Positions 5,217-26,558 of a stretch of 64,000 bases of DNA are shown in pieces. The DNA comes from Candidatus Aenigmatarchaeota archaeon (GTDB taxonomy: Archaea > Aenigmatarchaeota > Aenigmatarchaeia > QMZP01). The DNA lies in the NCBI GenBank assembly GCA_016783545.1, contig JADHWJ010000001.1, positions 10,369 through 74,368 of the forward strand. The letters run 5' to 3'. A model generated the notes under the pieces. The model ran no database searches and was not told where the DNA came from. It saw nothing but the letters and a program-made list of their open reading frames with translations. Every line of letters begins with the position of its first letter. Within the stretch, counting starts at the first letter, position 1. The position numbers and the translations under genes are program-made.

Positions 5217-7856
5217 ATGTTAATTCAAATTCTTGATGTTGATTATGTAATGGTTGATGATAAGCCTGTTATAAGAATATTTGGAAAGAATGGAGCAGGG
5301 GAAGCAGTTTGCGGGTTTTATGAAGGGTTTCTACCATATTTTTATGTTGCTGGGGAAAATGCTGAAGAGGTATTGAAAGATGAAGACCTTAATTTTGAAA
5401 AAGTTAAAAGGAATATTATACTGAAGCACGTGCCTCAAGACGTTTTTAAAATTACACTAAAAGATCCATCAAAAACCCCTGAAATCAGGGATAGGTTAAG
5501 ATCAAAGGGTTTGAAACCATACGAGGCTGATATACTTTTTAAATATAGATTTATGTCTGATATGGGCATCAATGGAATGAACTGGATTGATATAACAGGA
5601 CCTGGTATACAGACAGAAAGTGTTTCAATCAACAAAATAATTCAAATAAAGAAAATGAAAGCTGTTGAGAAGACTGGGAATGCCGACCTTAAAACATTGG
5701 CATTCGACTTAGAATGTGTTTCAAATAGAGGGGGCATACCTGAGGCAAAGAGGGATCCTATTGTCATGATATCAATACTTTTTAGTCATGATTATAAAGG
5801 TACGGATAGGATGCTTCTCAGTACAAGGTCTGGAAAAGGTGTAACATATTTTGAAACCGAAAAGGCAATGTTGGAAACATTCATTAAGATTGTCAATGAT
5901 TTTGATGCTGATATTTTAACAGGCTATAACTGCAATAACTTTGATTTTCCTTATACACTAGAAAGAATGAGACAAAACGGTATAAGGGCTATTTTCGGAA
6001 GATGTAAACAAAAAACAGTATTTGCAAAAAGTATTGGTAATAGGCATAAAGTTTATATGACAGGAAGAATGATTGTTGATAGTTATACTATTGTAAAAAA
6101 GGATTTCTCGTTGGTGCGATATGATCTTGGAACTGTTGCAAAAAATCTGTTAAATGAAGAGAAAATTGATGTCAAGCATTCTGAAATCGAAACACTTTGG
6201 AGAGGAAATGATATTGAATTTGAAAGGCTTGCAAAATATGCCATGAGGGATTCTGTTCTTGCGATAAATCTTCTTAGAAAGCTTGATCTTACAAGTAAAT
6301 ATATAGCTCTTTCAAAGATATCCGGTACTCTATTACAGGACACACTTGATGGTGGAGAGACACTTAGGATTGAAAATTATCTTTTAAGAGAGTTTAATAA
6401 AAAAAAATATATATTTCCATGCAAACCAGAACCAGAAGAAATGGGCAGAAGAATGAGGGAAAGGGAAGAAAATTTCTTAAAAGGTGGATATGTTATAGAA
6501 CCAAAGAAAGGTCTGCATTCAAACGTGGTTGTATTAGACTTCAAATCAATGTATCCGTCCATAATCAATACATTTAACATATGTCCAACAACATTGACCA
6601 GAGAAAACGGCGATGATGTGATAAAATCACTGTCAGGTGCAATGTTCTGCAAAAAATCTGTTAAAAAGGGTATAGTTCCTGATGTTCTTGAAAATTTAAT
6701 GAAAAGCAGACAGGCTGTTAAAATGCAGATGAAAAAAGAAACTGATAAGGAAATCATACGGGTTCTAGATGCCCAGCAATGGGCATTGAAGATTATGGCA
6801 AACGCATTTTACGGATATCTTGGTTACCTAAGGGCAAAAGCATACTATATCGACATAGCGAATTCTGTTACATCTTATGGGAGAAATCTTATTCAAAATA
6901 CCTCAAAATCCATTAAAAAAATGGGCTACGAAATCATATACGGTGATACAGATTCTGTAATGGTTCAATCAAAAAAAATAGAACTTGATGATATAGAAAA
7001 GGAAATGGTGAAAATTGTTGATATTATAAATAAAGATCTTGAAGGCATACTTGAACTTGAGTTTGAAAAAATATTCAAAAGATTTTTACCGTTCACTAAA
7101 AAAAGATATGTTGCTTTATGTTTTGAAAGGGATGGTGATAAATGGAAAGAAAAGATGGAAATGAAAGGTGTGGAGACTGTCAGAAGGGACTGGTGCGAAC
7201 TTACATCAGAAACTATGAAGAGGATTGTTGAGATTCTTTTAAAAGAGAATGATGTTAAGGGGGCGGTTAACCACTTTAAAAATGTTATTGGGAAACTTAT
7301 GAAAGGTGAAATAGCTGTGCAAAAACTTGCTGTTACAAAATCCATGTCAAAGTCTCCTGAAAGATATGTAGGCATGCAACCGCACATAGAACTTGTGAAA
7401 AAAATACGAAAAAGAAGCCCTGAGGAAACACCTGGAATCGGCGATAGAATACCTTATGTTATTGTCAAGGGTCTTGGCCTTCTTTCAAAAAGAGCTGAAG
7501 ATCCTATGTATGTAATTGAACATGGCATACAGGTTGACTCTTCATATTATATTGAGAATCAACTTCTTCCACCATTGGAAAGGATATTCACCAGCCTAGG
7601 AATTTTCAAGTCAGAACTTATGGGCAATGGCAAACAGATGGGAATAATGGATGCTATTAAAAATCATGTAAAAGCTGCGAAAGAAACTGAAAAGGAAAAA
7701 GAAATAATAATTTCATCAAAGGAAATGAACGGGTTTGTATGTTCAAAATGCAATGACTTCCATAGAAGGGTTCCACTAGTGGGTGTATGTGAATGCGGCG
7801 GAGAGTTTTTGTTTTCCAGCCCCAAAGGCACTGCCACAACGATTGTTGCTGGGTAG
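5217..7856 (+). CDS. polB: family B DNA polymerase with an extra C-terminal C4 zinc-ribbon extension
   Basis: The N-terminus ILDVDYV..KPVIRIFGK is like archaeal PolB. Exo motifs FDLE and YNCNNFDFPY are present, as are pol motifs SMYPSII (motif A) and YGDTDS (motif C). After the conserved end near YIENQLLPPLERI there are about 90 extra residues containing CSKCNDFHRRVPLVGVCECGG. Confidence 0.9.
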   Translation: MLIQILDVDYVMVDDKPVIRIFGKNGAGEAVCGFYEGFLPYFYVAGENAEEVLKDEDLNFEKVKRNIILKHVPQDVFKITLKDPSKTPEIRDRLRSKGLKPYEADILFKYRFMSDMGINGMNWIDITGPGIQTESVSINKIIQIKKMKAVEKTGNADLKTLAFDLECVSNRGGIPEAKRDPIVMISILFSHDYKGTDRMLLSTRSGKGVTYFETEKAMLETFIKIVNDFDADILTGYNCNNFDFPYTLERMRQNGIRAIFGRCKQKTVFAKSIGNRHKVYMTGRMIVDSYTIVKKDFSLVRYDLGTVAKNLLNEEKIDVKHSEIETLWRGNDIEFERLAKYAMRDSVLAINLLRKLDLTSKYIALSKISGTLLQDTLDGGETLRIENYLLREFNKKKYIFPCKPEPEEMGRRMREREENFLKGGYVIEPKKGLHSNVVVLDFKSMYPSIINTFNICPTTLTRENGDDVIKSLSGAMFCKKSVKKGIVPDVLENLMKSRQAVKMQMKKETDKEIIRVLDAQQWALKIMANAFYGYLGYLRAKAYYIDIANSVTSYGRNLIQNTSKSIKKMGYEIIYGDTDSVMVQSKKIELDDIEKEMVKIVDIINKDLEGILELEFEKIFKRFLPFTKKRYVALCFERDGDKWKEKMEMKGVETVRRDWCELTSETMKRIVEILLKENDVKGAVNHFKNVIGKLMKGEIAVQKLAVTKSMSKSPERYVGMQPHIELVKKIRKRSPEETPGIGDRIPYVIVKGLGLLSKRAEDPMYVIEHGIQVDSSYYIENQLLPPLERIFTSLGIFKSELMGNGKQMGIMDAIKNHVKAAKETEKEKEIIISSKEMNGFVCSKCNDFHRRVPLVGVCECGGEFLFSSPKGTATTIVAG

Positions 7857-10086: not shown

Positions 10087-10310
10087 GTTAGTGTTTTCAA
10101 GATCAGTTTGATATATTATTCTACCCCATTCATCTCTTCCATCATCTGGTTTTTCACAGAGTCGTAATCTTACTGGCTTTAGGAATTCAAAATCATCTGA
10201 CAGATTTAAAAGTACTCCATCTCCACCTAAAATTACTCAAATTTCTCTAATTAGACATTTCATATTACCATGTATTAATTTCCTGTCCTGGTATGAATTT
10301 CATTAAAAAT

Positions 10311-10356
10311 CTCCAGTGGAAGTCAAGGGGTGTTGATTTCTCCACCGGAAGTAAAG
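10311..10356 (+). repeat. pair of ORB-like (origin recognition box) elements
   Basis: CTCCAGTGGAAGTCAAGGGG (10311-10330) and TCTCCACCGGAAGTAAAG (10339-10356) resemble the archaeal ORB consensus: a TCCAGTGGAAA core followed by a G-string. Confidence 0.5.
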
Positions 10357-10551
10357 ATGTTCATATGAATAGTAAACCGATACCATGCAAAAGTCTCCTA
10401 AGGAAACAGAGGGGTATGAAGTAAATATTACTGTATTTTTTGTAATATTACAATTGTTCTAAATTCAATACAAAATCGACAGTATAAGAAATTTTATGAA
10501 GAATATTAACTTATTTTCCACTAGCAATGAAGGGGTGTTAAGTTCATGTGA

Positions 10552-11144: not shown

Positions 11145-12350
11145 TTAGAGTCTGAAATAGAATATTATAAGCGGCAAGATCAGAACTCCCATTGCACTGC
11201 TCCTTCTTACACCAAATAATGGTGCAAGCAGACCAATTGAAGTTGAAACCCATAGTATGAACAGACCAATTGGACCTGTGAGAATTGTTGTTAACCCCAG
11301 AAGAAAAAATATTATAATAATAGTTAGCATTCCATAATTAATTTTCTGCAAGCCGGTGATAAGCTTTCTCATTAATTTCAATAATATAAACGAAGAAATA
11401 CCTGCTGTAAAAACAGCAACCCCAAACAAAAGTATGAGTTCATTAAAGCTGAAATTAGGCAGTATCTGCTGAACAGCTATTGCTGCGCCTGACCTTGGCT
11501 TCGATATTGTATACAAAGAAATCAAAGAGAAAAGCGCCACTATTGTATTTATTGCACCTATTGAAACCAAGAATTCTTTATGATTCTTTCTTCTTGTTAT
11601 CTGCTGGGTTAAAATAGCTGCCTGGGACGCGCCAACACCAGGAAGTGTTCCTACAATGACTCCGCTAAAAAGACCTTTTACTATTCCTAGTAATGATAGC
11701 CCTTTTTTTATGTTTGGAAATTTGAGATTTTGTTCTGGTATCACTGTTCCCCTGTTAAGACTTATCAATAGGTTATTCATGCCAAAAAGCCCTGTGAATA
11801 AAGGGAACATTATCATATGTGAAGGTAGTATGTAAGAGTTTAGTGTTATGTAACCAAGAGTTCCTGATAATATGAAAATAAAACTAGCTTGTAAAATTTT
11901 CTTTATTTTTCTCTCTGTTGCTATAAGCACAACAGCCATTGTCAATAAAATCCAATGTATGTAGATGTGAATGTTCTGGTAAAATAAAGGAATGAAAAAA
12001 ATAAAAGCCGGAAACAGGATAAATGTAATCAGAACTGAAAAAAGTCCTCCAATAACAGTTAAATACAATGCTTCCAATCCTCTTCCCTCAAGAAGCATCT
12101 TATGTCCAGGAAGAACTGCAAGTGCTGTAGAGTCCTCTGGCGCCCCTAAAAAAATCGAGGGTATGAAATCAAAGAATGTGTGGGATATTGCCATTGCTAT
12201 TATAGCAACTGCAATGAAATATGGATTTATTGTTAAGGAGAGTGGTATTAACAAAAGGCTGATTGTATTTACATGAAGACCTGGTATAATGCCTGTTATT
12301 ATTCCAAGAAAACATCCAAATAAGCTGAAAATCAATATCTCAACTATCAT
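11145..12350 (-). CDS. TctA-family (DUF112) integral membrane transporter subunit
   Basis: 401 aa and polytopic. The motifs GIIPGLHVNT and VGTLPGVGASQAAILT are the duplicated G-x-x-P-G-x-G of the TctA/DUF112 family. Confidence 0.6.
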   Translation of the reverse strand: MIVEILIFSLFGCFLGIITGIIPGLHVNTISLLLIPLSLTINPYFIAVAIIAMAISHTFFDFIPSIFLGAPEDSTALAVLPGHKMLLEGRGLEALYLTVIGGLFSVLITFILFPAFIFFIPLFYQNIHIYIHWILLTMAVVLIATERKIKKILQASFIFILSGTLGYITLNSYILPSHMIMFPLFTGLFGMNNLLISLNRGTVIPEQNLKFPNIKKGLSLLGIVKGLFSGVIVGTLPGVGASQAAILTQQITRRKNHKEFLVSIGAINTIVALFSLISLYTISKPRSGAAIAVQQILPNFSFNELILLFGVAVFTAGISSFILLKLMRKLITGLQKINYGMLTIIIIFFLLGLTTILTGPIGLFILWVSTSIGLLAPLFGVRRSSAMGVLILPLIIFYFRL

Positions 12351-12739
12351 ATCTTCTCAAATTTTCCCTTTCTATAAACTAGCTCTAGTTCACCAGAACC
12401 CTTTGGATATTCATCTATAACTCCATTCATACAGAACATATCCCCACTTTCAATATCATATGGGTCTGTGTCAGTATCAATGAGGTCTTTTACCGTGCTA
12501 TTGAACATGACAAATTTTATTTTTCCTGTATCATCAACTATGTCTAGAAATATGTGTTTATTAGAAACTCTTTTCCCTTCAACAATGCCGCAGATAAAAA
12601 CTCCTTTTCCAACATCTCCAATTACTATTTCCTTTATTTTAATATTCTCAGAACCAATGTAACCAGAAATAAGAAAAAGTACCACCAGACCAACTGAAGA
12701 TGAAAATATTGCAAAATTTCTAAGGGTTTGCTCCCTCAT
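12347..12739 (-). CDS. membrane-anchored OB-fold (tRNA_anti-like) nucleic-acid-binding protein
   Basis: An N-terminal TM segment, then GKGVFICGIVEGKRVSNKHIFLDIVDDTGKIKFVMF, which is typical of an OB-fold barrel. It makes 4-nt overlaps with both neighbours, so it sits in the orc1 operon. Confidence 0.45.
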   Translation of the reverse strand: MREQTLRNFAIFSSSVGLVVLFLISGYIGSENIKIKEIVIGDVGKGVFICGIVEGKRVSNKHIFLDIVDDTGKIKFVMFNSTVKDLIDTDTDPYDIESGDMFCMNGVIDEYPKGSGELELVYRKGKFEKI

Positions 12740-13662
12740 ATAAACTCAACCCCCCTCTTACCCAAGTCCACTAAAACGCCACCGCCACCGCAGGAGATAA
12801 TACTAACACCATTATAATTTCTTGCCCATTTCTTTTCAGAAAGTATCCACATTATATCTGGTATTGGTTCTAAAAGAAAATAGTCTTCCTCTGATTTTAT
12901 CATTTGAGGCTCTGGCTTTAGGTGTCTCTTAACAAGATAATCCACTACTATATTGGGGTTCACATCCTTCTCTGGTTTATAGACAAGAATGTTCATCTCA
13001 TTATTCCCCCTTGATATTGTAATCCATGAAGGGTTTGTGAAGTTTGTGAATACATTTTTTTCCTCCTTACCTTCTTCTGTGAATATGAAGTCTGCCTTTA
13101 ATTCTTTGTTAAGTTTCTTCATAAAAGCCACTTTCACACCATCTATTTTTCTTAGCCTATTTTCTTTTGGAATATTTGGAAATATGATCTTATTTTCAAG
13201 TAATTTTTCCTCTCTTCTCATTCCTTTTACAGCAATCACATCATCAATATCCACTTTATTTTTACTAATAACTTCCACACTTCCTGTCATGTCTTCTAGA
13301 ATAAAACCAGACTCTCTCATTTCCTTTACCATTCCTATTACAGCTACAATGGAAAAGGAGTTTTTTATATTATTTATTGAAACAGGATTAACTTTCTCTA
13401 ATAATATTTTTTTCAATCCATTATACCTATTGTTATAATATTTGATGAAATTTTTTAGAAGAAGTTTTTCCTTCACTACAACTCTTTTTATTTTTACATT
13501 TACTTTAGATTCTTTTTCAATATTCCCAAGAATTGTCTGTTCCTGGTTATCTGCCTTTTTCAGATAGAATTCAATATTTTCTTCATTTATATTTTTTAGA
13601 ACTTCTGGTGATAACAATACACCTTTCTCCACAAAACGCATCACTATTTCTTTCTTTTCCAT
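12736..13662 (-). CDS. PolD small subunit (DP1)-like protein, short and apparently catalytically inactive
   Basis: The N-terminus RFVEKGVLLSPEVL matches the DP1 N-terminal domain. It has an OB-fold (SIVAVIGMVKEMRESGFILEDMTGSVEV). The C-terminus LVKRHLKPEP...PDIMWILSEKKWARNYNGVSIISCGGGGV aligns to the DP1 phosphodiesterase end (RRHLAP...PDIFHTGHVH...NSGTWQ), but the metal-binding His/Asp residues are replaced. Confidence 0.55.
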   Translation of the reverse strand: MEKKEIVMRFVEKGVLLSPEVLKNINEENIEFYLKKADNQEQTILGNIEKESKVNVKIKRVVVKEKLLLKNFIKYYNNRYNGLKKILLEKVNPVSINNIKNSFSIVAVIGMVKEMRESGFILEDMTGSVEVISKNKVDIDDVIAVKGMRREEKLLENKIIFPNIPKENRLRKIDGVKVAFMKKLNKELKADFIFTEEGKEEKNVFTNFTNPSWITISRGNNEMNILVYKPEKDVNPNIVVDYLVKRHLKPEPQMIKSEEDYFLLEPIPDIMWILSEKKWARNYNGVSIISCGGGGVLVDLGKRGVEFI

Positions 13663-13668
13663 TTTATT

Positions 13669-14928
13669 TTATACCATCCCCAATTTATTTTTCTGAGCAT
13701 CTAAAAAGAGATTGTCTGTTAAAAGATAGTTCTCTTTTAAAATCTCCCTAATCTTCTTTAGGATATTTTTTTCAAGGAGAACTTTGATCTCTTTTGACCT
13801 TCCATACCTACCCCTTGATATAATTTTCGTGTTTATTATACTGAGCATATCAAGTTCTCCTATAAGGTCTGATACCCTTCTCTGTGTTAAGACCTTAAGA
13901 CCCTTACTAACACATATTTTTTCATATAAGCTGAAAACATCACCAGTCTGTATGTTTTTGGGGTCTTTTTCAAGGAGCTTTAATATTGCGGCGAGAACTG
14001 CTTGTGATTGCCTTGGTTGGGTTTTTACAATCTCAACTGTTTTATCAGTATCTAATTTATTTTCTGCCTTGTCGAGATGCTCAATATTTATTTTACTATT
14101 TTTTTCTCGTTCAGCAATCTCCCCTGATATTCTTAAAAGATTCAGCGCTTTCCTAGCATCTCCATGTTCCTGTGCTGCGAGTGCGGCGCATTTTGCAATA
14201 ACACCTTCAGCTAAAACACTATCATCAAAGGCAAGCTTGGCCCTTTGGTTTAATATATCTTGTAGCTGGGCAGCGTTGTAGGGTGGAAATATTATTTCCT
14301 CTTCAGAAAGACTGGATTTTACTCTTGGATCCAGATTATCTGTGAATGTTGTATCATTAGATATTCCAATTAAGGAGAGTTTGGTTTCCTTAAGCTCTTC
14401 ATTTATTCTCGTAAATCTATAGAGGATATCATCTCCTATCTTGCTTACCAATGCGTCTATTTCATCTAATATTAAAACAACAACAGATTTCTTTGAGTCC
14501 AGTGTCTCATAAAAGATTTTAAAAACCTCATCTGTTGGTAGTCCTGTATAAGGGATCTTTTTTCCCATTATTCTTAGTATCTCAGCAATCATCCTATACT
14601 CTGTATCAGAAACCTTCTTCAGCTTGCAATTTATATAAATAACTTTTACATTATCTGATATTTTAGAAAGTTCTTTTGTAACATGTTTTGCAACACAGCT
14701 TTTACCAGTACCAACTGTGCCGAAAATGAATGTGTTGCTTACTCTCTGGCCTTTAATACTTGGCGCGAGTATCTTTGCAAGCTGATCTACCTGTTCTTCC
14801 CTATGTGGAATATCGTCTGGTATATACCTATCAGTTAGAAAGTCCCTGTCTTTGAATATTATAATTGATTCAGAAGCATATTTAGTAAATAAATCTTTTA
14901 ATGTTTGTTGTGCCATAAACTCTCCCAT
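13669..14928 (-). CDS. orc1: Orc1/Cdc6 replication initiator (AAA+ ATPase with winged helix)
   Basis: Walker A GTVGTGKS and Walker B ILDEID are present, followed by sensor motifs and a C-terminal winged-helix region. Confidence 0.9.
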   Translation of the reverse strand: MGEFMAQQTLKDLFTKYASESIIIFKDRDFLTDRYIPDDIPHREEQVDQLAKILAPSIKGQRVSNTFIFGTVGTGKSCVAKHVTKELSKISDNVKVIYINCKLKKVSDTEYRMIAEILRIMGKKIPYTGLPTDEVFKIFYETLDSKKSVVVLILDEIDALVSKIGDDILYRFTRINEELKETKLSLIGISNDTTFTDNLDPRVKSSLSEEEIIFPPYNAAQLQDILNQRAKLAFDDSVLAEGVIAKCAALAAQEHGDARKALNLLRISGEIAEREKNSKINIEHLDKAENKLDTDKTVEIVKTQPRQSQAVLAAILKLLEKDPKNIQTGDVFSLYEKICVSKGLKVLTQRRVSDLIGELDMLSIINTKIISRGRYGRSKEIKVLLEKNILKKIREILKENYLLTDNLFLDAQKNKLGMV

Positions 14929-15194
14929 CTTCCAGTGGAAATATTAACAATTTTATTTTAGATCTAAATTTTATAAGCTAGATTTCCGCTGGAAAAATAA
15001 AACACTGTAATAAATTATAATTTTGGAGTGGAAATGGTTTTTCCCTTTATTTTTACTATACCCACACCCACCATTTCCTATGGAGATATAACATAATAAA
15101 ATATAAAATATATTTTATAACAATGTTATATTATAAATAAAAATTTTCGATTTTTATTAAAAGTATTTTCCATGAGAAATCAAGGTCTCGGGGG
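14929..15194. other. candidate replication origin (oriC): ORB-like repeats flanking an AT-rich duplex-unwinding element
   Basis: TCCAGTGGAAA (14931-14941, abutting the orc1 start codon), TTTCCGCTGGAAAAA (14984-14998), TTGGAGTGGAAATGG (15023-15037), TTTCCTATGGAGA (15074-15086) and TTTTCCATGAGAAAT (15176-15190) surround a roughly 85% AT tract at 15087-15170. Confidence 0.6.
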
Positions 15195-15920
15195 TTATTC
15201 TATTTTATTTATCCTTTCAATTAATTCTTCTAGTTTCTGATCTTTGGTGATGACTAGAGGAATACCTTCTGCTTCAGCAATTCTTTTTGCGATTTCATCA
15301 ACTTCCCCTATACCATGAAGAACAACTAAGGCTGGTTTTAGATTAGTTAGTTTAATGGCAACCATTGGCCCTCTTCCTGTAGAAAGTTTTGTAAATATTA
15401 ACGCTCTCTGGGTTGTAGAACCGTATACATTTATCAGTTCTGTTGAAGAAAACTCTGTTATTGCCTTTAAAGAGTCTATTACACTATACCCATAAATCAC
15501 ACCACTACCATTAACAATGGGTTTTGCGTTTATTTTTTTACAAAAATCATTCACATCTATACCAGACGCAAATTCTCTCATATCGATTATAGCGTCTGAT
15601 AAAAGCGGCTGTTCGGTTTTCTTCGAAAATGATTTTAATATCTCTCCACCCACCTTTTTATCTATACTGAGCAAAGCCTCTATATATCTCTTTATTATTT
15701 TTATTCCAGGACTCTTTCTTCTACCAGATTCATAGTCAGATATAACACTTGATGTTATACCTAGCTCTTCAGCAAGTTCTTTCTGGGAGATTTTGAATAT
15801 ATTCCTCCATTTCTTTAAAACACTATTTAAATTATCTGAAAGAACAACCTCCCCTACAATATCCTTTATCAGTCTTTCCCTTCCCAATACATCGTCAGAT
15901 AGCTTAATCATGTTCGACAC
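15195..15920 (-). CDS. HTH (XRE-type) transcriptional regulator with a C-terminal uncharacterised domain (COG1395-like)
   Basis: ISQKELAEELGITSSVISDYESGRR is a classic XRE helix-turn-helix. The 241-aa architecture matches a conserved archaeal regulator family. Confidence 0.6.
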   Translation of the reverse strand: MSNMIKLSDDVLGRERLIKDIVGEVVLSDNLNSVLKKWRNIFKISQKELAEELGITSSVISDYESGRRKSPGIKIIKRYIEALLSIDKKVGGEILKSFSKKTEQPLLSDAIIDMREFASGIDVNDFCKKINAKPIVNGSGVIYGYSVIDSLKAITEFSSTELINVYGSTTQRALIFTKLSTGRGPMVAIKLTNLKPALVVLHGIGEVDEIAKRIAEAEGIPLVITKDQKLEELIERINKIE

Positions 15921-15959: not shown

Positions 15960-18900
15960 TTAGAGCCGCTTTTTATAGATACCTACTGAAAGGATTAGCA
16001 AAAGAATGATTGAAAATTCTTCTAAACCGGAAAACCCTGGTGGGAACCCAATATCTATTCTTACTTCACTTTCATCTTCAAATACCTCACCAGGAGGGAA
16101 CTCAAAAACATCAGATACAGCTATCATCTTCAATTTATAATCTTGGCCAGACTCCCTTGAAGGTATTTCAATGAAAAATCTTTTCCTTTCCCATGGCTGA
16201 AGCACAATATCTTCTATTACCCGTCCTTCTGATTCAACAAACTTTGCCAGGTCATAATCTTCCAAACTTAGGTCAATTGTTTGCGTTTCTCCGAGAAGCT
16301 CCCAAATAGTGACACCGAGTAGATATGTTTCTCCATTTCTGATTACAATATAATTTGAGTCAAATGCAGCCAATGGATGTGTTGTTATTGAATATTCTAT
16401 ATTATTATAATTCTCTGCCCTATCCATTAATTCCACATTTAATTTGACAAGACCTGTTTCATATAATATTTCTATTGGGCAGTTAACACTTCCTCCCCAA
16501 CTATCTCCAGAACCACAATCGTTCCAATCACCACCAGTAGTCCATTTCAAAACACTAACACCAGAGACAGAATCACTTGCATCAATATCCATCTTAACAT
16601 TACCAACATTTCCTGGTATTATTATCCAACCAACCACAGCCTTTATATTATCTATGAATGTTGCTGTATATTCTGGTGGAAGAACGTCTATTGTTGTTCC
16701 CATAAGCCTATTGATGCAATCAGGATCTGCCACATCATCTTCATCACAAACATCTTCAAGTAGTCCATCACTTTCAGAATAAAGACTGAACATAAAGGAG
16801 TAGCTGTCTGTATCACTACCCACCTCATCGTCTGAATCAAAAGTTAAAGATCCTTCAGTGCATTTATCTGGTGTGCATGTAAATTCACCTAAATTAAACC
16901 ACCTAGTCCAAGCAGTCTCTGGACCAGGTCTATTAGGGTTGGGGTTATACCTGTATTTAACAAAAAAGGAGTCCACTGGTGTTCCAGAACCGAATTGTAT
17001 TGGAAATGTAATTTTATTTATCCAATCTGGAAGTCTTGTGAAAAATGATGTCGGAGGGGTAATTACGATTCTTTTTTCCACTGAAACTAGAGGGCCGTCG
17101 TTTCCAACATTATCAAAGGGTTTGCATGTGAATATATATGTTCCTTCATCACCAGCCCAATTGCAAGAGAAATCACCGTTTCCATCCACATCAGCTGTCA
17201 ATATATATGTGAGGTCACCAGACCCATAATTACACATACTATATATATTCAATGGGGTGCCTCCCTCTTCTTTCAGACCAATCTCAAATTCCTTTATCCC
17301 AGATTCATCATCAGTTCCAGTTAGTGGTATAGTAAATGATGACGTAACAGGGGAGTCATCGCCCATTACACATGTTGGCGGGCCCAGGTCAGCGCCCACA
17401 GACTTTTCTTCTTCACCGGTATTTCCAGCCCGGTCAGTTCCTATTAGTTCGAATTTATATAGATAGTTGTTTTGAAGATTATCAAAAACTATTATTTCTC
17501 CAAGGCCAAATAATCCAGGAGTACCAAGTGTTGGTGTGCAGGGGTCTGTTGCTGGAGAACAGCTACCAGATTCTATTGAAATAGGAGTAATACCAAACCC
17601 AGAACCGCCCAGGTCAGAACCAGACCAACTCATGGTGAACGTATCAGCAACCCATGTAATCAGTCCCTCAACATAAAGAGCAGGGGTCACGATTAGAGAG
17701 AAGCTGGGTTCTTGGTTGTCAACCTTTACCTCATTGGTATTGGAAACAGTGACAACACCAAAGTCAGTGAAGATAATGTCAGCCTCAAATTTATAACATT
17801 TACCCGATTCCAGGCCTGTTACTCCAATAATCTCATCAAAAAGTGTTAGTAAGCCACCAACTTGGGTCCTTTCACTATAAGTTCCACACACACCATTAGC
17901 TAATGTCGCTGTCCTTTGGAAAATCTTGAAACCAGTTGAATCTTGATCACTCTTGGTTACAGTAATATCAAGAGTCGTATCCTGGGTAAATCCACCATCA
18001 TAAACTATTGACCCGGTTGCAGTGCCTATTGTTATTGATTTTGTCACCTCCTTTGAATTGTCTGCATTGTCCCATGTGATGGCTTTTATAATATAGCTTG
18101 ACTCTACTATAGTAACACCACAAACAGTCTCTGGAGGCTTTACCTCAACAACACCACTTTCTGGTAAATCACACCCATTATCATTATAATCAACAGTGCA
18201 TTCATCGGATTCATAAATACAGAATCTAGTTTTGTCAATGCCAGAAAGCCCGTCAGACGGTGTTATTTTTACATTAACAAAATCACTTCGAGTACATAGG
18301 TCATCATCACAACCAGTGCCTAAACAACACTCTGCTGCAATAGATGGGTCTGTTATATCTATCTTAACGCTTGTAAGAACAGAATTAGATTCACTTCCAC
18401 TAACATCATTTGCACCAAAATTAAGAAGATCTTCTTGTTCAGAAAGAGTGTTTGTATAATCATATTCATAGGTGCCTTTCATTGTCTTGGTATACCCAAG
18501 AGTTGGATCTGTTAGTTCAACACCATCAACCAGTGGCTCGCAGTCCCCTGAAGTTGCAATGCACATCTTTGTTGCTGCTATGTCATAAGCAGAGCTTACT
18601 GTGACTGTGATGTCCTGATCCTCATTAATCCACACATCATCGCTTCCATAATCCACTTCTAACACAACCCCTGCTGTTGAGACAGGGTCTGATGGGTTTC
18701 CTGCAACATCAATTGCCCTATACACCTTTTTCTTCCCTTCTGGAACAGTCTGGGTGTCATCACTGCAAGATGGATCTCCTTGATCTGGGGCTTCTTCATC
18801 ATTTATTAGGGGACAATTTATTGTTCCTTTCACCCCATCACATGTTCCAGCGCAGTTGCCGGCATCACTCACAGTACAATCGCTTAAAACATCTCCCTGG

Positions 18901-20810
18901 CACCATTTTATTTTCCTCATTCCAGATCCCCCAGCTTCATCGTGCGCTTCTATTTCAAATTCAACACCTGGGAGCACACTCTCTGGTGGTGTTATCACTG
19001 GTGCAATCTTATCTATCTGCACTATGACTGTGGCTGTCTCAAAGTTGTCAAAGCCGTCAGCCGCAGCAGAACAAATAATTACTTTGCTGCTAAGGTCATC
19101 TACTTTACCATCACTTTCATAGTATCCGGGGCTTGGGTATGGTTCTGAATAAGTAACTTTTTCAACATCTGTCCCGCTTAAGAAATCAGCCTTAGAGGGG
19201 CAGCTGACTTCCTTAAAACCAACATCTCTACAACCAACACCATTATCCGGGTCATCACATTTCACTTTAAAGTCTCTGTCAAGGTTGAACCATGGGGTTG
19301 TATCACCATCTTTATAGTTCTCTTTGGTCCCGTCACCATCCATGTCTATCTGGAGCTTGACATTTGGCTTTTCCCTTTCCAGTATTGTAAATTGCCCTTC
19401 AGCTTTGGGAGAACACTCGTGCCAGTAACTTCCCGGAGTATCTTCTGGTATCCTGTTGCAAGATTTCACTTCCCATTCATAATTACCGTATCCAAGCTCG
19501 TTTACATCGTATTTATGTTTGGCTTCATCGAAAACAGCTTCAGGGTCTGCTGGGTTTGGTGTAAAAATTCCTGGAACTATCACTTCCTTTATGTTTTTCA
19601 GGTAAAAATAATACGTGTCAACATAACTGCTATCACTAGCGCGCCACTGGAACTCAACATCCAGATTTCCAGTATCGTCTGTCACTTCCAGCTCGTTTGT
19701 TGGTGCTATTAAAGTTGGTAATTCAGGTACATAGTATTTGGTGATTTTTATCTTGAATGCCGGAGGACCGTAAGAGTCTAGGCCAAGTGAAATACCACCT
19801 GGGGTTTGACTATGCCCATAACTCCATGAAAAATAAAAATTAAAGTCAGTCCCGTCAGACGGGCTTGAAACGTATGGAAGTATTATAAAATATGAATCAA
19901 AATTATACTTCCCAAGGTCATTGGTGAGCCATAAGAAAGTTTTCCATGAAAACCAATCATCAAAATTGACTTGGCTTGGTTCATACTGGAGCCTGTATAT
20001 ATTATTTTCATTATGTGCAAAAGGAGCTGGGTCTGCCCTGAAAACAGTTGGATCTGCTTTCTTTGTGTTTATATTACTACCCCAGTCACTAAAAACTCCA
20101 TCATTGCAATAGTCCCTTCCCTTACACCAGCTTTTTGCTTGGTATTCAAAACCAACTATAGAACCAAGGATTTTATCTGTTGATATTTTAATCCTACATA
20201 ATCTACCTTCATGAATATAATCATGGTTTGCTTTGTTTACCCATTCACATACTTCACAATCATCAGTATCGCATACACAATATTTTTTACATCCATAATA
20301 AACGTCATCTCCACCATCACCTGTAACAGTTCCAGAATTAGCATTGCTTGGAACAAACTCAACCTCAACAGGAGTTGGAAGGTCAACCCATCCAGCATTT
20401 GCAATACCAGAGCTCAGAAGAAAGAAAAATAAAAAAAATATGGGAACATACCCTGCATTGTGATTTATAGCTCCACCCCTTCTGAGTTTTTTAGTAGCTA
20501 AGAAAATAACAAGAATAGCAATCAAAATAATCAATCCCCATAGAATGAATTCATTCCCTTCTACTGGTTCTTCAATTGTTCTGTTGGGTGCTCCAGATAC
20601 CTCTATCCTATTACCATTTTCATCAGCTATGAAATAGCGTTGGTTTTGCTCTATCTCTATACTATCTATTGGGACTTCACTAGAATTAGGAACACATGAA
20701 TCAAGTTCTTCCATATAGACGGTTCCAGTAGGGCAACTCAGCTCTTCAGCCTGAACAAAGACCATGAGCAAAAAAACCGTAAGCAAAAACGAAACTGTTA
20801 TAAATTTCAT
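15960..20810 (-). CDS. giant (1616 aa) Cys/Asp/Gly/Thr-rich cell-surface protein with a C-terminal TM anchor
   Basis: N-terminal signal peptide MKFITVSFLLTVFLLMVFVQA, then a second hydrophobic segment. Long beta-rich repeats follow, with many Cys pairs. The C-terminus FSIILLLILSVGIYKKRL is a TM anchor plus a basic tail. Confidence 0.6.
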   Translation of the reverse strand: MKFITVSFLLTVFLLMVFVQAEELSCPTGTVYMEELDSCVPNSSEVPIDSIEIEQNQRYFIADENGNRIEVSGAPNRTIEEPVEGNEFILWGLIILIAILVIFLATKKLRRGGAINHNAGYVPIFFLFFFLLSSGIANAGWVDLPTPVEVEFVPSNANSGTVTGDGGDDVYYGCKKYCVCDTDDCEVCEWVNKANHDYIHEGRLCRIKISTDKILGSIVGFEYQAKSWCKGRDYCNDGVFSDWGSNINTKKADPTVFRADPAPFAHNENNIYRLQYEPSQVNFDDWFSWKTFLWLTNDLGKYNFDSYFIILPYVSSPSDGTDFNFYFSWSYGHSQTPGGISLGLDSYGPPAFKIKITKYYVPELPTLIAPTNELEVTDDTGNLDVEFQWRASDSSYVDTYYFYLKNIKEVIVPGIFTPNPADPEAVFDEAKHKYDVNELGYGNYEWEVKSCNRIPEDTPGSYWHECSPKAEGQFTILEREKPNVKLQIDMDGDGTKENYKDGDTTPWFNLDRDFKVKCDDPDNGVGCRDVGFKEVSCPSKADFLSGTDVEKVTYSEPYPSPGYYESDGKVDDLSSKVIICSAAADGFDNFETATVIVQIDKIAPVITPPESVLPGVEFEIEAHDEAGGSGMRKIKWCQGDVLSDCTVSDAGNCAGTCDGVKGTINCPLINDEEAPDQGDPSCSDDTQTVPEGKKKVYRAIDVAGNPSDPVSTAGVVLEVDYGSDDVWINEDQDITVTVSSAYDIAATKMCIATSGDCEPLVDGVELTDPTLGYTKTMKGTYEYDYTNTLSEQEDLLNFGANDVSGSESNSVLTSVKIDITDPSIAAECCLGTGCDDDLCTRSDFVNVKITPSDGLSGIDKTRFCIYESDECTVDYNDNGCDLPESGVVEVKPPETVCGVTIVESSYIIKAITWDNADNSKEVTKSITIGTATGSIVYDGGFTQDTTLDITVTKSDQDSTGFKIFQRTATLANGVCGTYSERTQVGGLLTLFDEIIGVTGLESGKCYKFEADIIFTDFGVVTVSNTNEVKVDNQEPSFSLIVTPALYVEGLITWVADTFTMSWSGSDLGGSGFGITPISIESGSCSPATDPCTPTLGTPGLFGLGEIIVFDNLQNNYLYKFELIGTDRAGNTGEEEKSVGADLGPPTCVMGDDSPVTSSFTIPLTGTDDESGIKEFEIGLKEEGGTPLNIYSMCNYGSGDLTYILTADVDGNGDFSCNWAGDEGTYIFTCKPFDNVGNDGPLVSVEKRIVITPPTSFFTRLPDWINKITFPIQFGSGTPVDSFFVKYRYNPNPNRPGPETAWTRWFNLGEFTCTPDKCTEGSLTFDSDDEVGSDTDSYSFMFSLYSESDGLLEDVCDEDDVADPDCINRLMGTTIDVLPPEYTATFIDNIKAVVGWIIIPGNVGNVKMDIDASDSVSGVSVLKWTTGGDWNDCGSGDSWGGSVNCPIEILYETGLVKLNVELMDRAENYNNIEYSITTHPLAAFDSNYIVIRNGETYLLGVTIWELLGETQTIDLSLEDYDLAKFVESEGRVIEDIVLQPWERKRFFIEIPSRESGQDYKLKMIAVSDVFEFPPGEVFEDESEVRIDIGFPPGFSGLEEFSIILLLILSVGIYKKRL

Positions 20811-21579: not shown

Positions 21580-23229
21580 ATGCAATATTGGGGAGTTTTA
21601 TTAGTCTTTTCTGCATTTTTTATAGCGCTTTCTATTCCAATATATGCCTTTGAGACCTGTTCTGTCAATGTTAAAAGCAAGTATAATCTTCAGCCGCTTG
21701 AAGGAATGCAAGCTGCTATACACGAAGAAAAACTCTTGGGGGCCAACCCATACTGTACCATAATAAATACTGATATGAGTGGCGATGCATCAATTTCCGT
21801 GCCTTGGTCTGTTTCAGGTGATTGCGATTCTGATAAGTGCACAAAATATGAAGCCGTGGCTTATTATCATGGCGAATATGAGACAAAGTCCTTTTCTTCT
21901 GCAGGGAAACTTTATTTCAAAGTGCCTGCTGGAAATATAGATGTTGAAGTCAGGCTTGTTGATAATGCTGGGAATATTGTAACCAGTGGAATAACATCGG
22001 TTTATTTAGGATATGGTGATGGCACTGTTAAGAACACACTCGATGCACAACCACCAACTCAAGGGATTCTTAATACAGTTGTTTATATACCACAGCCAAT
22101 GGGAACTCCGGTAGGTATACACCCAAACCCACAATTTCATTGCCAGGCAGGCATTGGGGACGGCTGTTTTAGGGATATATACACAATGGCAGAGTTGGAT
22201 GATGGGAGTTTCACAAACTGGGAAAAGCTAAGCAGGGTCAATTGGCAAACAATAAACGCTAAGCTATATAAGGAGATAGAGGTAGCCCAAGGAGGCACTG
22301 TTAGTTGCACTGGTGGAACAGGTGAGATAGAAATAGATCTGAAGAGCATAAGAGGGAACAACATAGCTTCTGAAGGTTATAGTTTTAGAATGGTTTGTAA
22401 GTATAAGAGCGGTTTTTTTGGGCAAACTCAGACAGAAGAGCTCAGCCCGGTTTCAGGTACCAGCAGATTTACTGGATTAAAAACAAATTCGGATTTTGAA
22501 TACAGCTATGAAGTTATGTATGGTGCCACTTCAAAGCAGAGAAACAGCGACCTGTCAACAGTGATTGGTAAGGGCAATGCTGGGAGTTTTCCAACAGGCC
22601 AAGACAAAATGAGTCATGAGTATATAGTGAAACCTGATTGTAAGATGTATTGCATTGAAAAGGATCAGGGTACAATTGAGGGCTTGGTTGCCTATATCAT
22701 TGATCCTTTAAGCGAATTAGGTCTTATTGATAAAATTTTAGGCTCGATCATCAATGCCATTACATTTGGACTGACACCAGGTCCGCAGCCAATTAATATA
22801 ATAACTGATATTCTCGGAAACATTGCACATATTGTTGATGCTGTCACATTTGGAAATTTTGGATCAAAGAATTGCAAGCCATTGGAAGACCTTACAGAGG
22901 CTCAAACCGTTGATTATCTAACTACTATCAGGGATACTGTGCTAAAGGATGATGCTGCGCTGACATATTGTTCAATAGAGATTGATGTTAAAGAGGAAAG
23001 TTATGATAAGGAAAATAATGAAGGGAAATATAAGATAGAAATGAACTCAGAGCCAAGGACAGACGACCTGATGAGGGCGATATTCTATTGCCATTTATTG
23101 GGATGCTTTGATTCTGGTGATAGTGAAAGTGGGAGAAAAAATGATGTAGTGCCCGGTAAATGCACACCACCAACTTGTGAATGTCCCCCAGATTCACCAA
23201 ATGAATGTGCGATAAGATGTTGCACTTAA
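21580..23229 (+). CDS. secreted Cys-rich protein (Sec signal peptide)
   Basis: Signal peptide MQYWGVLLVFSAFFIALSIPIYA. The tail is Cys-rich: GKCTPPTCECPPDSPNECAIRCCT. Confidence 0.5.
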   Translation: MQYWGVLLVFSAFFIALSIPIYAFETCSVNVKSKYNLQPLEGMQAAIHEEKLLGANPYCTIINTDMSGDASISVPWSVSGDCDSDKCTKYEAVAYYHGEYETKSFSSAGKLYFKVPAGNIDVEVRLVDNAGNIVTSGITSVYLGYGDGTVKNTLDAQPPTQGILNTVVYIPQPMGTPVGIHPNPQFHCQAGIGDGCFRDIYTMAELDDGSFTNWEKLSRVNWQTINAKLYKEIEVAQGGTVSCTGGTGEIEIDLKSIRGNNIASEGYSFRMVCKYKSGFFGQTQTEELSPVSGTSRFTGLKTNSDFEYSYEVMYGATSKQRNSDLSTVIGKGNAGSFPTGQDKMSHEYIVKPDCKMYCIEKDQGTIEGLVAYIIDPLSELGLIDKILGSIINAITFGLTPGPQPINIITDILGNIAHIVDAVTFGNFGSKNCKPLEDLTEAQTVDYLTTIRDTVLKDDAALTYCSIEIDVKEESYDKENNEGKYKIEMNSEPRTDDLMRAIFYCHLLGCFDSGDSESGRKNDVVPGKCTPPTCECPPDSPNECAIRCCT

Positions 23230-23231
23230 CT

Positions 23232-26200
23232 ATGAACAAAAAAATTAAAGCCCAAGTGGAAATATTGACAATAGTTTTAGTAGCTGCAGGAATAATTGTA
23301 GCTGTAGTGTATGGTGGGACAATGGAAGAGCCGAAAGGAAAATTTGTAGAATCAGCTATAATATCCCTCCAAAATACAATGTGTACAGACCCTGCTAATG
23401 CATATTCATTCTCTGGTGGTGTTAGAACCACATGTACATGTTATCTTGCTTTTCAGCCATACGCAACTTCGTTTTCCACTGCCTATCCTGTTGATGTTGA
23501 ATATCTGGGCCTTGTATGGGAGGGCGCTGAAGGATTCTGTTATGGGCTTCAAATAATACCAGAAGGTGCTGAGCCTGGAATAATGCCACCCGGTGGCGGA
23601 GTAACTCCCCCATCAGGTGAATGCCCTGGTTATGATTGTTCCCCTCATGATGCAAGCAGAGTTAGTAAAAAATTCACTGTTAGCTATAACATCCATCCTA
23701 ATAAAGACAAGAATAATATATTTGGTAATTTGATGGCTAAAGTGAGAATATTGGATGAAAATAGCCCTCCTAATGAAATAGAAATCCTCGATGATGCTGA
23801 TGTTAGTATTGACATACCCAGTAGCTGCAATGCTGTTGGTTCATTAGACTGCAAAGTGGAAGTTTATGTTGATAATCCAGATCCATCGCATATGAAAGAT
23901 GGATATGCTTGGATGTTTTATTTGGGCCAGGCAGCTAAAATTGCTAAAACAGATTGTGATAGTAGCGGAGCATGTGATGGAATAGACTGGGCCGATGGCG
24001 ACGATGTTGATATAGTGGGATTTGAATTTCCAACTTCTACGTTGCCGGTGTTCCCCTTTGGCATGCAGCCAGGAACATTTGAGAGAGCTTTTGATGGTGT
24101 TGAAATCAGAGATTTATGCCTTGAATGGCCTGTTACTGACGGTGAAAGGCTGGAACCAATAACCATTGGTCCCTATTCTGATCCAGTATGTAATTGTAAA
24201 AATCCAGGAGATGGTCCTTATGAGGGATTCCAGAAAGAAGAGAGTGGTAGTGCTCAATGCGTTGAAATTGTTGACACCGGATATGTTAGATTTGAAGACT
24301 ATAACGATGTGGAAACATACGTGTTTTCAAGGGGGGAGAACATGTTCTGCACTGCCCGTATAGACACTTTTAATGATATTGAACCTGTTAATCCAAAAAT
24401 AGAAATTTTAATGGTTAAGGAAGGAGATATTGACAACCCTTTGACAAAAAGCGGCGAAGATGGTAATCCAACCTGTAATTTTAATGAGGACTGTGTAATA
24501 GGATATGATACCCTTGGGATAACAGATTTCAGTTCAGGTCCTGTTAACATTGAGTGTTATGTGAAATACAGCTTTGATGCATGGAATTCCAGGGAATATA
24601 AGAGCATGCCTGAAATGATGTTCCTTAATGGTCCAACCGCTGTTCATCATGTCCCACTGCCCAGTGCGCAGGTTTTCCCATGCCCTGATAAAACCTTAGC
24701 ACAACCTTATCCTAATCCAGAAATACCCGAACTTGGAGAGGAATATTGTGTGTGTGTGGAGAGTGTAACAGTTCCTGATGGAACGTTAGATTTAGATGGT
24801 ACATACGGGCCTGATATGAAGTGTCATATATTACCAATACTCCCAAGTACTATTTTTTATGACGAAGATGGGAATAAAAGGGGAAAAGTCCCGAAAGGCG
24901 ATGTAAGTGTTATAGTGGAGGGAGAAAAATACAAAGACAGTGATGATGTGATTGCCAGGGGATATTTTTATGGCAGGTACGTTTCAGATGATACTGTTAC
25001 ACCACCTGTTGACTGTGAAACAACAATCAATATTAAAAGAATACGTACCGACGCTTCCGGAGCTGAGCAAACAGAGGATTTTGAAGGTACTGATAACTGC
25101 TGCGATGCTAATGAAATATGCGAATTAACTTTCCTTGACGCTGAAACAGAACCATTTGACAAATTTGAGGCCTACATGGCATACAAATTCAAGGTTTGGG
25201 ACGGTGTTAATGAGATTCCAATAACAGGGTACATAGAAGGCGACACTTTAGCCATGGGAATAGGTGACACGTCAGAGGCAGAAGTTGCTCCCTGTCCGGA
25301 TGGATTTGAAACATCTATATATACAGATGCTGTTGGTATTGGTTATAACATATGCATTTGTGGTGATCAGAACGAAGGCTTTACAAGACCAAAGATAGGT
25401 GACGATGATGGTGTTTGCGTCAAGTCAGATATTGAAAATATGAGGTATGGAGATCTTTACACAGAAGAAATCATAGGATTTATGCCTGCTGGTGGTAACT
25501 ATTACACATCTGAAATTCAACCAAAATGTATAGCAGATATTGAAATTGAGAACGGGGAGATAGACAGTGATACTATTGTAGAAGTGAAAGGATTTTTGGA
25601 AGCGGTTGAATATGGGGATGATACTGTAGTGCAGGATTATACTCAAATGTGTGATATTTCACAAGCTGAATGCACTGTTAGTCTTTCTCCACAATCTAAA
25701 TTTCTGTATACAAAATGCAAGTTTAATGAGGATATTTTAACTTGGAGTGGAAAAGCAGACATAACAATTAGAAAACCTATTCAATTTCAACAAATCCAAC
25801 CAGAAGAAAGTATAATGATTATACCGGTTGGTTATATTAAGGGAACTATAAAAGGATGTAGAGATGTTAAAGGAGTTAGAACATGCGCAGAATTGGAAGA
25901 TGTTGAAATAAAATTAATTAGCAGCCAGGTAAATCCACATAAGGTGTGTAATGAATTCCCATGTAATGAAATAGCTGGCGTAACCGATGCAAACGGAAAC
26001 TTTGATATCGGGCCGATATATTCCCAATTTGATGATACTGATAAATTCCTTTTCAGGTTGATGGTTAACTCAGGTGGCATGGAATATTTCTGGGACGGTA
26101 ACCAAATAATGAATGATACTATCTGGGAGACGTTTAATATCCCTTTGAATAGTTATAAAGATTTTGGTGTTTTGGAAATTGAAATGCCTCCGTGCAAAAA

Positions 26201-26558
26201 ACTGCAGGAGATCGGAGAAGGTAAGGATAAAATGGAAGATTTAATTGATGAATTCAATAGTTGCTTGAATAACAATGCATGTAAAATGTTCTGCCAGCCT
26301 AGTTTAAACATAAAAGACGAATATAAAATGAATCTTGGGTCATTAACAACTGTTGTTGATTCAGTCCTGGACGCTCCAATAGTATTATATCAGAGACTTT
26401 TGCTGGGAGTGGTTGACAAGGTAAGATTGATAACTTTCAATAAAGTACCGGTTGTTTCAGCACTCAAAAGTTATATTAATTTATTCACACCCTATCTTAT
26501 TTGGCATGGGGATTTTGAGCTTATTGAAAGAAATAAGAGTTGGTGGCAGATATGGTAG
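23232..26558 (+). CDS. large (about 1100 aa) surface protein with a pilin-like class III signal peptide
   Basis: MNKKIKA|QVEILTIVLVAAGIIVAVV has a basic n-region, then K-A, then Q and E, then a 20-aa hydrophobic stretch, matching archaeal prepilin-peptidase substrates. The body is Cys/Asp/Gly-rich. Confidence 0.5.
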   Translation: MNKKIKAQVEILTIVLVAAGIIVAVVYGGTMEEPKGKFVESAIISLQNTMCTDPANAYSFSGGVRTTCTCYLAFQPYATSFSTAYPVDVEYLGLVWEGAEGFCYGLQIIPEGAEPGIMPPGGGVTPPSGECPGYDCSPHDASRVSKKFTVSYNIHPNKDKNNIFGNLMAKVRILDENSPPNEIEILDDADVSIDIPSSCNAVGSLDCKVEVYVDNPDPSHMKDGYAWMFYLGQAAKIAKTDCDSSGACDGIDWADGDDVDIVGFEFPTSTLPVFPFGMQPGTFERAFDGVEIRDLCLEWPVTDGERLEPITIGPYSDPVCNCKNPGDGPYEGFQKEESGSAQCVEIVDTGYVRFEDYNDVETYVFSRGENMFCTARIDTFNDIEPVNPKIEILMVKEGDIDNPLTKSGEDGNPTCNFNEDCVIGYDTLGITDFSSGPVNIECYVKYSFDAWNSREYKSMPEMMFLNGPTAVHHVPLPSAQVFPCPDKTLAQPYPNPEIPELGEEYCVCVESVTVPDGTLDLDGTYGPDMKCHILPILPSTIFYDEDGNKRGKVPKGDVSVIVEGEKYKDSDDVIARGYFYGRYVSDDTVTPPVDCETTINIKRIRTDASGAEQTEDFEGTDNCCDANEICELTFLDAETEPFDKFEAYMAYKFKVWDGVNEIPITGYIEGDTLAMGIGDTSEAEVAPCPDGFETSIYTDAVGIGYNICICGDQNEGFTRPKIGDDDGVCVKSDIENMRYGDLYTEEIIGFMPAGGNYYTSEIQPKCIADIEIENGEIDSDTIVEVKGFLEAVEYGDDTVVQDYTQMCDISQAECTVSLSPQSKFLYTKCKFNEDILTWSGKADITIRKPIQFQQIQPEESIMIIPVGYIKGTIKGCRDVKGVRTCAELEDVEIKLISSQVNPHKVCNEFPCNEIAGVTDANGNFDIGPIYSQFDDTDKFLFRLMVNSGGMEYFWDGNQIMNDTIWETFNIPLNSYKDFGVLEIEMPPCKKLQEIGEGKDKMEDLIDEFNSCLNNNACKMFCQPSLNIKDEYKMNLGSLTTVVDSVLDAPIVLYQRLLLGVVDKVRLITFNKVPVVSALKSYINLFTPYLIWHGDFELIERNKSWWQIW

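Follow-up and report, generated by a model that had tools for sequence, protein, structure and literature searches.

In eukaryotes, the polymerases of replication belong to family B and are held by a dead B-subunit that resembles DP1, and the locus described here raises the question of whether a counterpart of this arrangement is encoded beside an archaeal replication origin. The locus lies in a 64,000-nucleotide stretch of a Candidatus Aenigmatarchaeota archaeon (assembly GCA_016783545.1, contig JADHWJ010000001.1, positions 10,369 to 74,368; hereafter the window). Here the gene following orc1 encodes a 308-amino-acid (aa) protein, termed sDP1, that is related to DP1, the small subunit of the archaeal polymerase PolD, whose large subunit is DP2. 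Our explanation, to which we give a probability of about 0.8, is that sDP1 is the non-catalytic B subunit of a two-subunit, eukaryote-like replicase in which a family-B DNA polymerase (PolB) of the same window is catalytic. An earlier sequence-only reading of the window implied that such a system would be new. It is already known: the arrangement in Aenigmarchaeota has been published (PMC7544198) and the interaction shown (PMC12680538). Because the system is published and the interaction was tested by others, the value of the present work is confirmatory, in that the observation is confirmed and its interpretation supported. What may go beyond the literature is a half-deleted phosphodiesterase (PDE) domain and a gene order suggesting a replacement of DP2 by PolB in place.

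sDP1 is a conserved gene with a DP1-like fold

The open reading frame (ORF) and ATG start proposed in the sequence-only reading were recovered unchanged (Table 1). An identical protein, MBL7205990.1, is filed at NCBI as 'hypothetical protein ISS36_00150' from a Candidatus Aenigmarchaeota metagenome-assembled genome (MAG). Ten homologues of 311-351 aa were found (E 1e-49 to 1e-74), and a family profile built from these (alignment A1) matched 189 clusters at 50% identity (E<=1e-30). Obvious fragments aside, essentially all of the matches are 270-370 aa long and align end to end with the sDP1 family, in which 27 alignment columns are invariant. For one unsaturated pair (Nei-Gojobori method, dS 0.64), the ratio of non-synonymous to synonymous substitution rates (dN/dS) came to 0.09 over the whole gene and to 0.13 when the PDE remnant was taken by itself. 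sDP1 is a real gene under purifying selection and no chance ORF.

The N-terminus of sDP1 aligns with the N-termini of canonical DP1s and falls inside the match to the NCBIfam DP1 model (NF003118, E 1.4e-19), which pairs residues 5-181 with profile positions 7-231 of 481. The score was 70.5 bits against a curated equivalog cut-off of 445. A Pfam scan gave no match for sDP1 and a single-sequence search of the PDB returned nothing useful, DP1 being detected only by NCBIfam and by the family profile. With the latter, DP1 alone was matched in the PDB (6knb_A, E 2e-13; 6hms_A, E 1.4e-11), each time in two pieces, one in the OB region and one in the final ~60 residues of the PDE domain. Sequence homology to DP1 is therefore detectable in sDP1, N-terminal domain included. 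Moreover, the predicted structure is confident and compact (predicted local distance difference test score, pLDDT, 88), and the whole model superposes on polymerase B-subunits with an archaeal DP1 as the best structural match. The core of the B-subunit superfamily, an OB fold followed by a calcineurin-like phosphoesterase-fold domain, is present, and the fold assignment made earlier is thus borne out.

Eukaryotic B-subunits gave no significant sequence match to sDP1 (best E = 2). As its nearest relatives in both sequence and structure are archaeal DP1s, sDP1 is an analogue, or possible precursor, of the eukaryotic B-subunit state rather than an established orthologue. The earlier reading of a possible eukaryote-like B-subunit is supported by a dead DP1 fold encoded ~5 kb from a zinc-ribbon PolB. 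The database entry MBL7205990.1, at present a hypothetical protein, can now be annotated as a non-catalytic DP1/B-subunit homologue.

Predicted loss of the DP1 nuclease

Twenty-four related loci were compared with the window (9 Candidatus Aenigmatarchaeota, 2 'Nanoarchaeota', 9 other GTDB and 4 metagenome/Logan), and the DP1 proteins of the related loci L025 and L026, which lie in orc1-DP1-DP2 operons, served as canonical references. None of the five phosphoesterase motifs of active DP1 (DxH, GDxxD, GNH[D/E], H, GHxH) was found in sDP1. Motif I (GDPHVG in canonical DP1) is replaced by KKL(N), motif IV (VYHG) by VYKP, with K229 in place of the histidine, and motif V (GHIH) by LSEK; motifs II (GDxxEG) and III (GNHD) fall in deletions of ~24 and ~66 aa. 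What sDP1 and active DP1 have in common are the N-terminal helices, the OB motifs IGMV.E, EDxTG and DDVI.V.G, and a set of non-catalytic segments (NP, VY, L.KRHL.P, PD, Y.G).

A closer look at the metal ligands in an alignment of 138 sequences (136 family members and the two canonical DP1s) found none of these positions conserved among the family members. In 134-135 members the columns of motifs I and III are empty, a single member having N and H at the two motif III columns, and the remaining positions are occupied by K, R or E (motif IV) and by S/G/Q and E/K/N (motif V). Judged by these alignments, the phosphodiesterase of sDP1 is dead, all catalytic motifs having been lost, and the domain is about half deleted, which goes beyond mere mutation. 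The claim that every alignable metal ligand is substituted was right, with the small correction that motifs II and III are deleted.

The reference set itself contains an unusual protein. The Pacearchaeota DP1 of L025 (9647-11209) has GQHD for GNHD and GEVH for GHxH, although the gene after it encodes a full-length DP2. Its nuclease may be degenerate in part, in a lineage that has not lost PolD.

A Delta-like polymerase with a DP2-type zinc tail

All of the motifs Exo I-III and Pol A-C were located in the PolB of the window and are intact. At the end of the thumb the protein matches the catalytic subunits of Pol delta (E 2e-17) better than archaeal PolBs (E 4e-10). The C-terminus then runs from the thumb through a PIP-like sequence (KQMGIMDAI) and a linker to the Cys4 ribbon CSKC-x12-CEC, and this Cys4 tail is kept in the PolBs of all related loci. 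When the window was searched by tblastn with a Pacearchaeota DP2, residues 1074-1110 of the query matched 7725-7832 (46% identity, E 4e-6), the sole DP2-like segment of the window. A profile of the tail region, searched against PolD structures, likewise found DP2 of T. kodakarensis (6knb_B 1127-1164, E 9.5e-4) and 6hms_B (E 0.035). These matches indicate that the zinc ribbon of PolB is homologous to the C-terminal zinc module of DP2, and PolB is probably the catalytic partner of sDP1.

Neither a DP2 catalytic core nor a second DP1 was found in the window, which agrees with the earlier remark that no DP2 lies downstream of sDP1. DP2 was also absent from ~20 related loci of 20 kb each, L025 and L026 being the loci that carry orc1-DP1-DP2. 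In a protein search with DP2 the best 120 matches were all from Pacearchaeota/Nanoarchaeota, a depth too shallow to speak on absence from Aenigmarchaeota.

The sequence KQMGIMDAI, which resembles a PCNA-interacting protein (PIP) box, is internal in PolB (7632-7658, plus strand), immediately ahead of the linker that leads to the zinc ribbon, and is kept in three aligned PolB tails. It has the look of the PCNA-binding motif with which a standard archaeal PolB once ended, the DP2 module having been appended behind it.

Relation to known systems

In the available text of Kazlauskas et al. (2020, NAR, PMC7544198), DP2 is absent from most Aenigmarchaeota, and an inactivated DP1 is described together with a zinc-tailed PolB of group B6 in the DP2-less members. 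In the same text, the B6-group (Delta-like) PolBs bear a single zinc motif (B6-aenigma1) or two of them, described as 'acquired directly from DP2zfIII', and the proposal is made that the PolB exonuclease permitted inactivation of DP1 and that such a state may be ancestral to the eukaryotic B-subunits. A study from 2025 (PMC12680538) reported that, among archaeal lineages, only Aenigmatarchaeota and Baldrarchaeia keep DP1 without DP2, that DP1 binds PolB with a DP2-type C-terminal domain (yeast two-hybrid and AlphaFold 3), and that the two-motif 'B6-aenigma2' sequences are Baldrarchaeial contamination. As the PolB of the window has a single zinc motif, its sequence fits the genuine B6-aenigma1 type.

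With this in mind, sDP1 belongs to the inactive-DP1 group of Aenigmarchaeota on phylum, inactivation and co-occurrence with a single-zinc B6 PolB. The likeness to the system described in the available parts of PMC7544198 extends to the Delta-like PolB with one DP2-type zinc motif; DP2, lacking there, was not found in the window, and no difference from sDP1 could be demonstrated on that basis. Those parts say 'inactive', and no mention was found in them of the deletion of motifs II and III or of the order orc1-sDP1-TctA-PolB.

Canonical DP1 (P. abyssi, PDB 5ihe/6hmf; T. kodakarensis, 6knb_A) resembles sDP1 in its N-terminal helices, OB fold and PDE beta-sandwich core, and in a gene position directly after orc1. 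However, sDP1 is ~200 aa shorter, has lost the five phosphoesterase motifs and is not followed by DP2; it is thus outside the canonical active DP1 family by its motifs, its lack of a DP2 partner and its curated score. Eukaryotic B-subunits (POLE2/Dpb2, POLD2/Pol31, POLA2/Pol12) differ in having a full-size PDE domain (410-570 aa in total against 308) and in being more distant from sDP1 than archaeal DP1 is, and the polymerases that they hold carry CysA plus CysB, whereas the PolB tail here has one zinc motif. The PolB3-DP2CTD and DP1 of Baldrarchaeia (PMC12680538) are alike in that DP1 is kept, DP2 is lost and a DP2-type C-terminal domain on PolB binds DP1. Their C-terminal domain is full-length, like that of DP2 and eukaryotes, while the tail in Aenigmatarchaeota is shorter and termed 'degenerate' (PMC12680538).

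sDP1 as a probable B subunit and the alternatives

If sDP1 is a B subunit, its OB fold and remaining PDE beta-sandwich would clamp the Cys4 zinc ribbon at the C-terminus of PolB, a ribbon presumably derived from the DP2 zinc module that canonical DP1 binds likewise. PolB, with no damage to its exonuclease or polymerase motifs, would carry out both synthesis and proofreading, and the DP1 nuclease is therefore proposed to have become dispensable and to have been deleted. The retained N-terminal helical domain would probably tether the polymerase to the replisome via GINS/CMG, by analogy with Dpb2, which binds GINS, and with the DP1N of Thermococcus, which binds Gins51 according to the available text of PMC9023282. 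Co-transcription of sDP1 with orc1 beside oriC would then reflect the layout of an ancestral orc1-DP1-DP2 operon. Binding between this particular sDP1 and PolB is what we infer, a DP1-PolB tail interaction having been published for the phylum.

Several points weigh against this explanation. The absence of DP2 was checked in the 64-kb window of the MAG only. The PolB tail of Aenigmatarchaeota is described as a 'degenerate' version of the DP2 C-terminal domain, reduced in length and predicted to take another structure (PMC12680538), so the binding mode may differ from that of PolD, and as the PDE remnant is without about half of the domain, it could lack some of the canonical interface. Moreover, one of two sDP1 copies on the closed chromosome CP070801.1 (that of L006) adjoins an apparently split or partial orc1, followed by the gene for a small OB-fold protein (OB130) and TctA, and the 10 kb around it contain no PolB.

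That copy, lying beside an orc1-like fragment with PolB not nearby, would also suit a role for sDP1 with Orc1 at the origin, as an OB-fold initiator accessory or loader whose linkage to PolB is incidental. So would the start of sDP1, which either overlaps orc1 or follows it by 6 bp in all loci with upstream sequence, and the adjoining origin with its boxes. However, the adjacency of orc1 and DP1 is ancestral and, because canonical orc1-DP1-DP2 operons have it too, says nothing specific on function. As the whole of sDP1 superposes on polymerase B-subunits and an Aenigmatarchaeota DP1 binds the PolB tail in published yeast two-hybrid work (PMC12680538), a dedicated partnership with Orc1 is quite unlikely. 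It is very unlikely that sDP1 instead pairs with a DP2 encoded elsewhere to form a PolD without proofreading, PolB being an independent enzyme. Inspection covered 64 kb of the MAG, and the DP1 N-terminal domain, OB fold and KRHL/PD segments are retained in sDP1, but DP2 is reported absent from most or all Aenigmarchaeota (PMC12680538 and the available text of PMC7544198), was found in none of the ~20 related loci, and has its zinc module now attached to PolB.

A functionless DP1 decaying after the loss of DP2 might be expected to have lost ~200 aa and every catalytic residue and to escape Pfam, as sDP1 does. The dN/dS values, low in the PDE remnant as well as overall, argue that it is no such relic. 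With full-length homologues in 189 clusters, invariant columns, a confident compact model and a conserved, translationally coupled operon position, we regard decay as extremely improbable; as a pseudogene reading, it is effectively refuted by the selection and conservation data.

Gene order and a possible replacement of DP2

Across the related loci the recurring order is HTH_3, usually a divergent Metallophos gene, orc1, sDP1, OB130 (four loci), TctA and a convergent PolB with zinc tail, and the linkage orc1-sDP1-(OB)-TctA-PolB is kept in ~19 loci. In L023 and L024, two divergent relatives, PolB comes after sDP1 on the same strand and TctA is convergent. The Pacearchaeota locus L025 has orc1-DP1-DP2 and a convergent TctA, its DP2 slot being the PolB slot of L023 and L024. 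Three orders can thus be set side by side: orc1-DP1-DP2 in Pacearchaeota, orc1-sDP1-PolB in L023 and L024, and an inverted PolB-TctA pair in most Aenigmatarchaeota and the window. This suggests that PolB took over the very site of DP2 and only afterwards became inverted.

We tentatively propose, at somewhat less than even odds, that a Delta-like PolB landed in the DP2 gene, of which the 3'-terminal zinc module alone was kept, and that DP1 then shrank to the smallest B-subunit known, its PDE remnant being ~135 aa. It is through the deletion of about half of the PDE domain that sDP1 becomes the smallest B-subunit-like protein. Neither in-place replacement by PolB nor a minimal B-subunit was found stated in PMC12680538 or in the available text of PMC7544198. 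If the proposal is true, the ~135-aa remnant represents a minimal surface for holding a polymerase C-terminal domain, and the order of the locus records the in-place rise of a eukaryote-type replicase. Archaea in which a PolB is combined with a dead DP1 are the best living models for the origin of the eukaryotic architecture from PolD. The locus is a clean example, in that a single origin and orc1 are accompanied by a minimal, dead DP1 and by an intact PolB whose zinc tail derives from DP2, and the half-deleted PDE domain and conserved gene order offer concrete material for structural and evolutionary work.

The two sDP1 genes of the closed Aenigmatarchaeota chromosome CP070801.1 (L006, 696015-716941; L009, 448646-469605) are 42% identical, and one of the copies stands in a full HTH-orc1-sDP1-PolB module. 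They could belong to two origin modules, or one could have been acquired.

The origin and neighbouring genes

The placement of sDP1 next to orc1 and oriC in the sequence-only reading was correct: orc1 is directly upstream, and an AT-rich origin with origin recognition box (ORB)-like boxes lies beyond it. The gap to orc1, given there as 7 bp, is 6 bp in the junction sequence. The ATGA overlap of sDP1 with the following OB-fold gene was confirmed, and the latter overlaps the start of TctA in the same way.

Table 1. Coordinates of sDP1, its domains, the candidate partner polymerase and neighbouring features in the window.
Feature	Position	Strand	Basis
sDP1, DP1/B-subunit homologue, shortened and predicted to be catalytically dead	12736..13662	minus	308 aa, ATG start, MBL7205990.1
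sDP1 residues 1-42, helical domain like DP1 N-terminal domain	13537..13662	minus	model helices 3-12, 19-24, 30-40
sDP1 residues 104-162, OB fold	13177..13353	minus	IGMV.E / EDxTG / DDVIAVKG motifs common to canonical DP1
sDP1 residues 172-308, calcineurin-like PDE domain remnant	12739..13149	minus	motifs II and III deleted; I, IV and V substituted
Family-B DNA polymerase (PolB), 879 aa	5217..7856	plus	Pfam DNA_pol_B 2.8e-106, exo domain (exo1) 4e-37
PolB C-terminal Cys4 zinc ribbon CSKC-x12-CEC, probable sDP1 docking site	7740..7796	plus	sequence
orc1/cdc6 initiator, 6 bp upstream of sDP1	13669..14928	minus	NCBIfam ORC1 E 1.3e-150; Pfam Cdc6 domains
OB-fold protein (OB130), 130 aa, hydrophobic N-terminal segment FAIFSSSVGLVVLFLISGYIG	12347..12739	minus	PF01336 E 1.8e-9
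TctA-family membrane protein, conserved neighbour of orc1-sDP1 cluster	11145..12350	minus	Pfam TctA 4e-59; synteny
HTH_3 (XRE-type) protein, conserved neighbour beyond origin	15195..15920	minus	Pfam HTH_3 6.5e-11
oriC-like intergenic region, 266 bp	14929..15194		ORB-like boxes at 14929, 14983, 15074 and 15167 flanking a 19-20% GC stretch

The four boxes of the origin spacer are of the TTCCAGTGGAAA type. Across the window the ORB pattern matches 16 times, where 5.1 matches are expected, a number reached in 0/100 shuffles. Four of these matches cluster upstream of orc1, and in the related loci the region ahead of orc1 shows a ~9-fold enrichment of such boxes. Three more ORB-like boxes (TCTCCAGTGGAAG, TCTCCACCGGAAG and TCTCCTAAGGAAA, at 10310-10406) form a second cluster in the intergenic region 10087-10551, ~4.5 kb from the orc1-proximal one. 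This cluster could serve as another origin element or as a regulatory site bound by Orc1.

Beyond the origin, a homologue of the HTH_3 protein (51-62% identical) is found upstream of orc1 in most related loci. OB130 is a lineage-specific insertion, restricted to the window and its closest relatives (L005, L006, L007 and L010), and given this confinement a role as membrane-anchored partner of TctA is more probable than one in the replisome.

In 18 related loci (L002, 7871-8557, minus strand; homologues in L001, L003, L004, L007-L016 and L019-L022) the gene next to orc1 on its upstream side, in divergent orientation, encodes an apparently intact metallophosphoesterase of 224-228 aa. The protein keeps all of the motifs DxH, GD, GNHD and HxH and bears a weak likeness to YfcE. 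The 64-kb window contains no homologue, only the 266-bp origin spacer separating the HTH gene from orc1. That this protein supplies the 'missing half' of the PDE domain in trans was considered and rejected, given E > 1 against the DP1 PDE domain and the lack of a homologue in the window.

Other features of the window

The window has ~33-40% GC and for the rest the look of an ordinary archaeal chromosome, with genes for tRNA synthetases, mevalonate and isoprenoid synthesis and SecD/F; tRNA and Rfam scans of the 64 kb gave no match. An ORF of 861 aa (55025-57610, minus strand) has a geranylgeranyl reductase-like FAD-binding N-terminus interrupted by an intein (Pfam Intein_splicing, E 1.4e-14), to our knowledge an uncommon host. 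Several very large ORFs (549-1616 aa) are located at 21580-28534 (plus), 43303-48380 (minus), 61058-63997 (minus) and 15960-20810 (minus), those of the first three regions without a Pfam match at 1e-5. The ORF of 1616 aa at 15960-20810, which was outside the Pfam scan, has hydrophobic segments near both ends and probably encodes a surface protein. Such very large uncharacterised proteins are typical of DPANN genomes.
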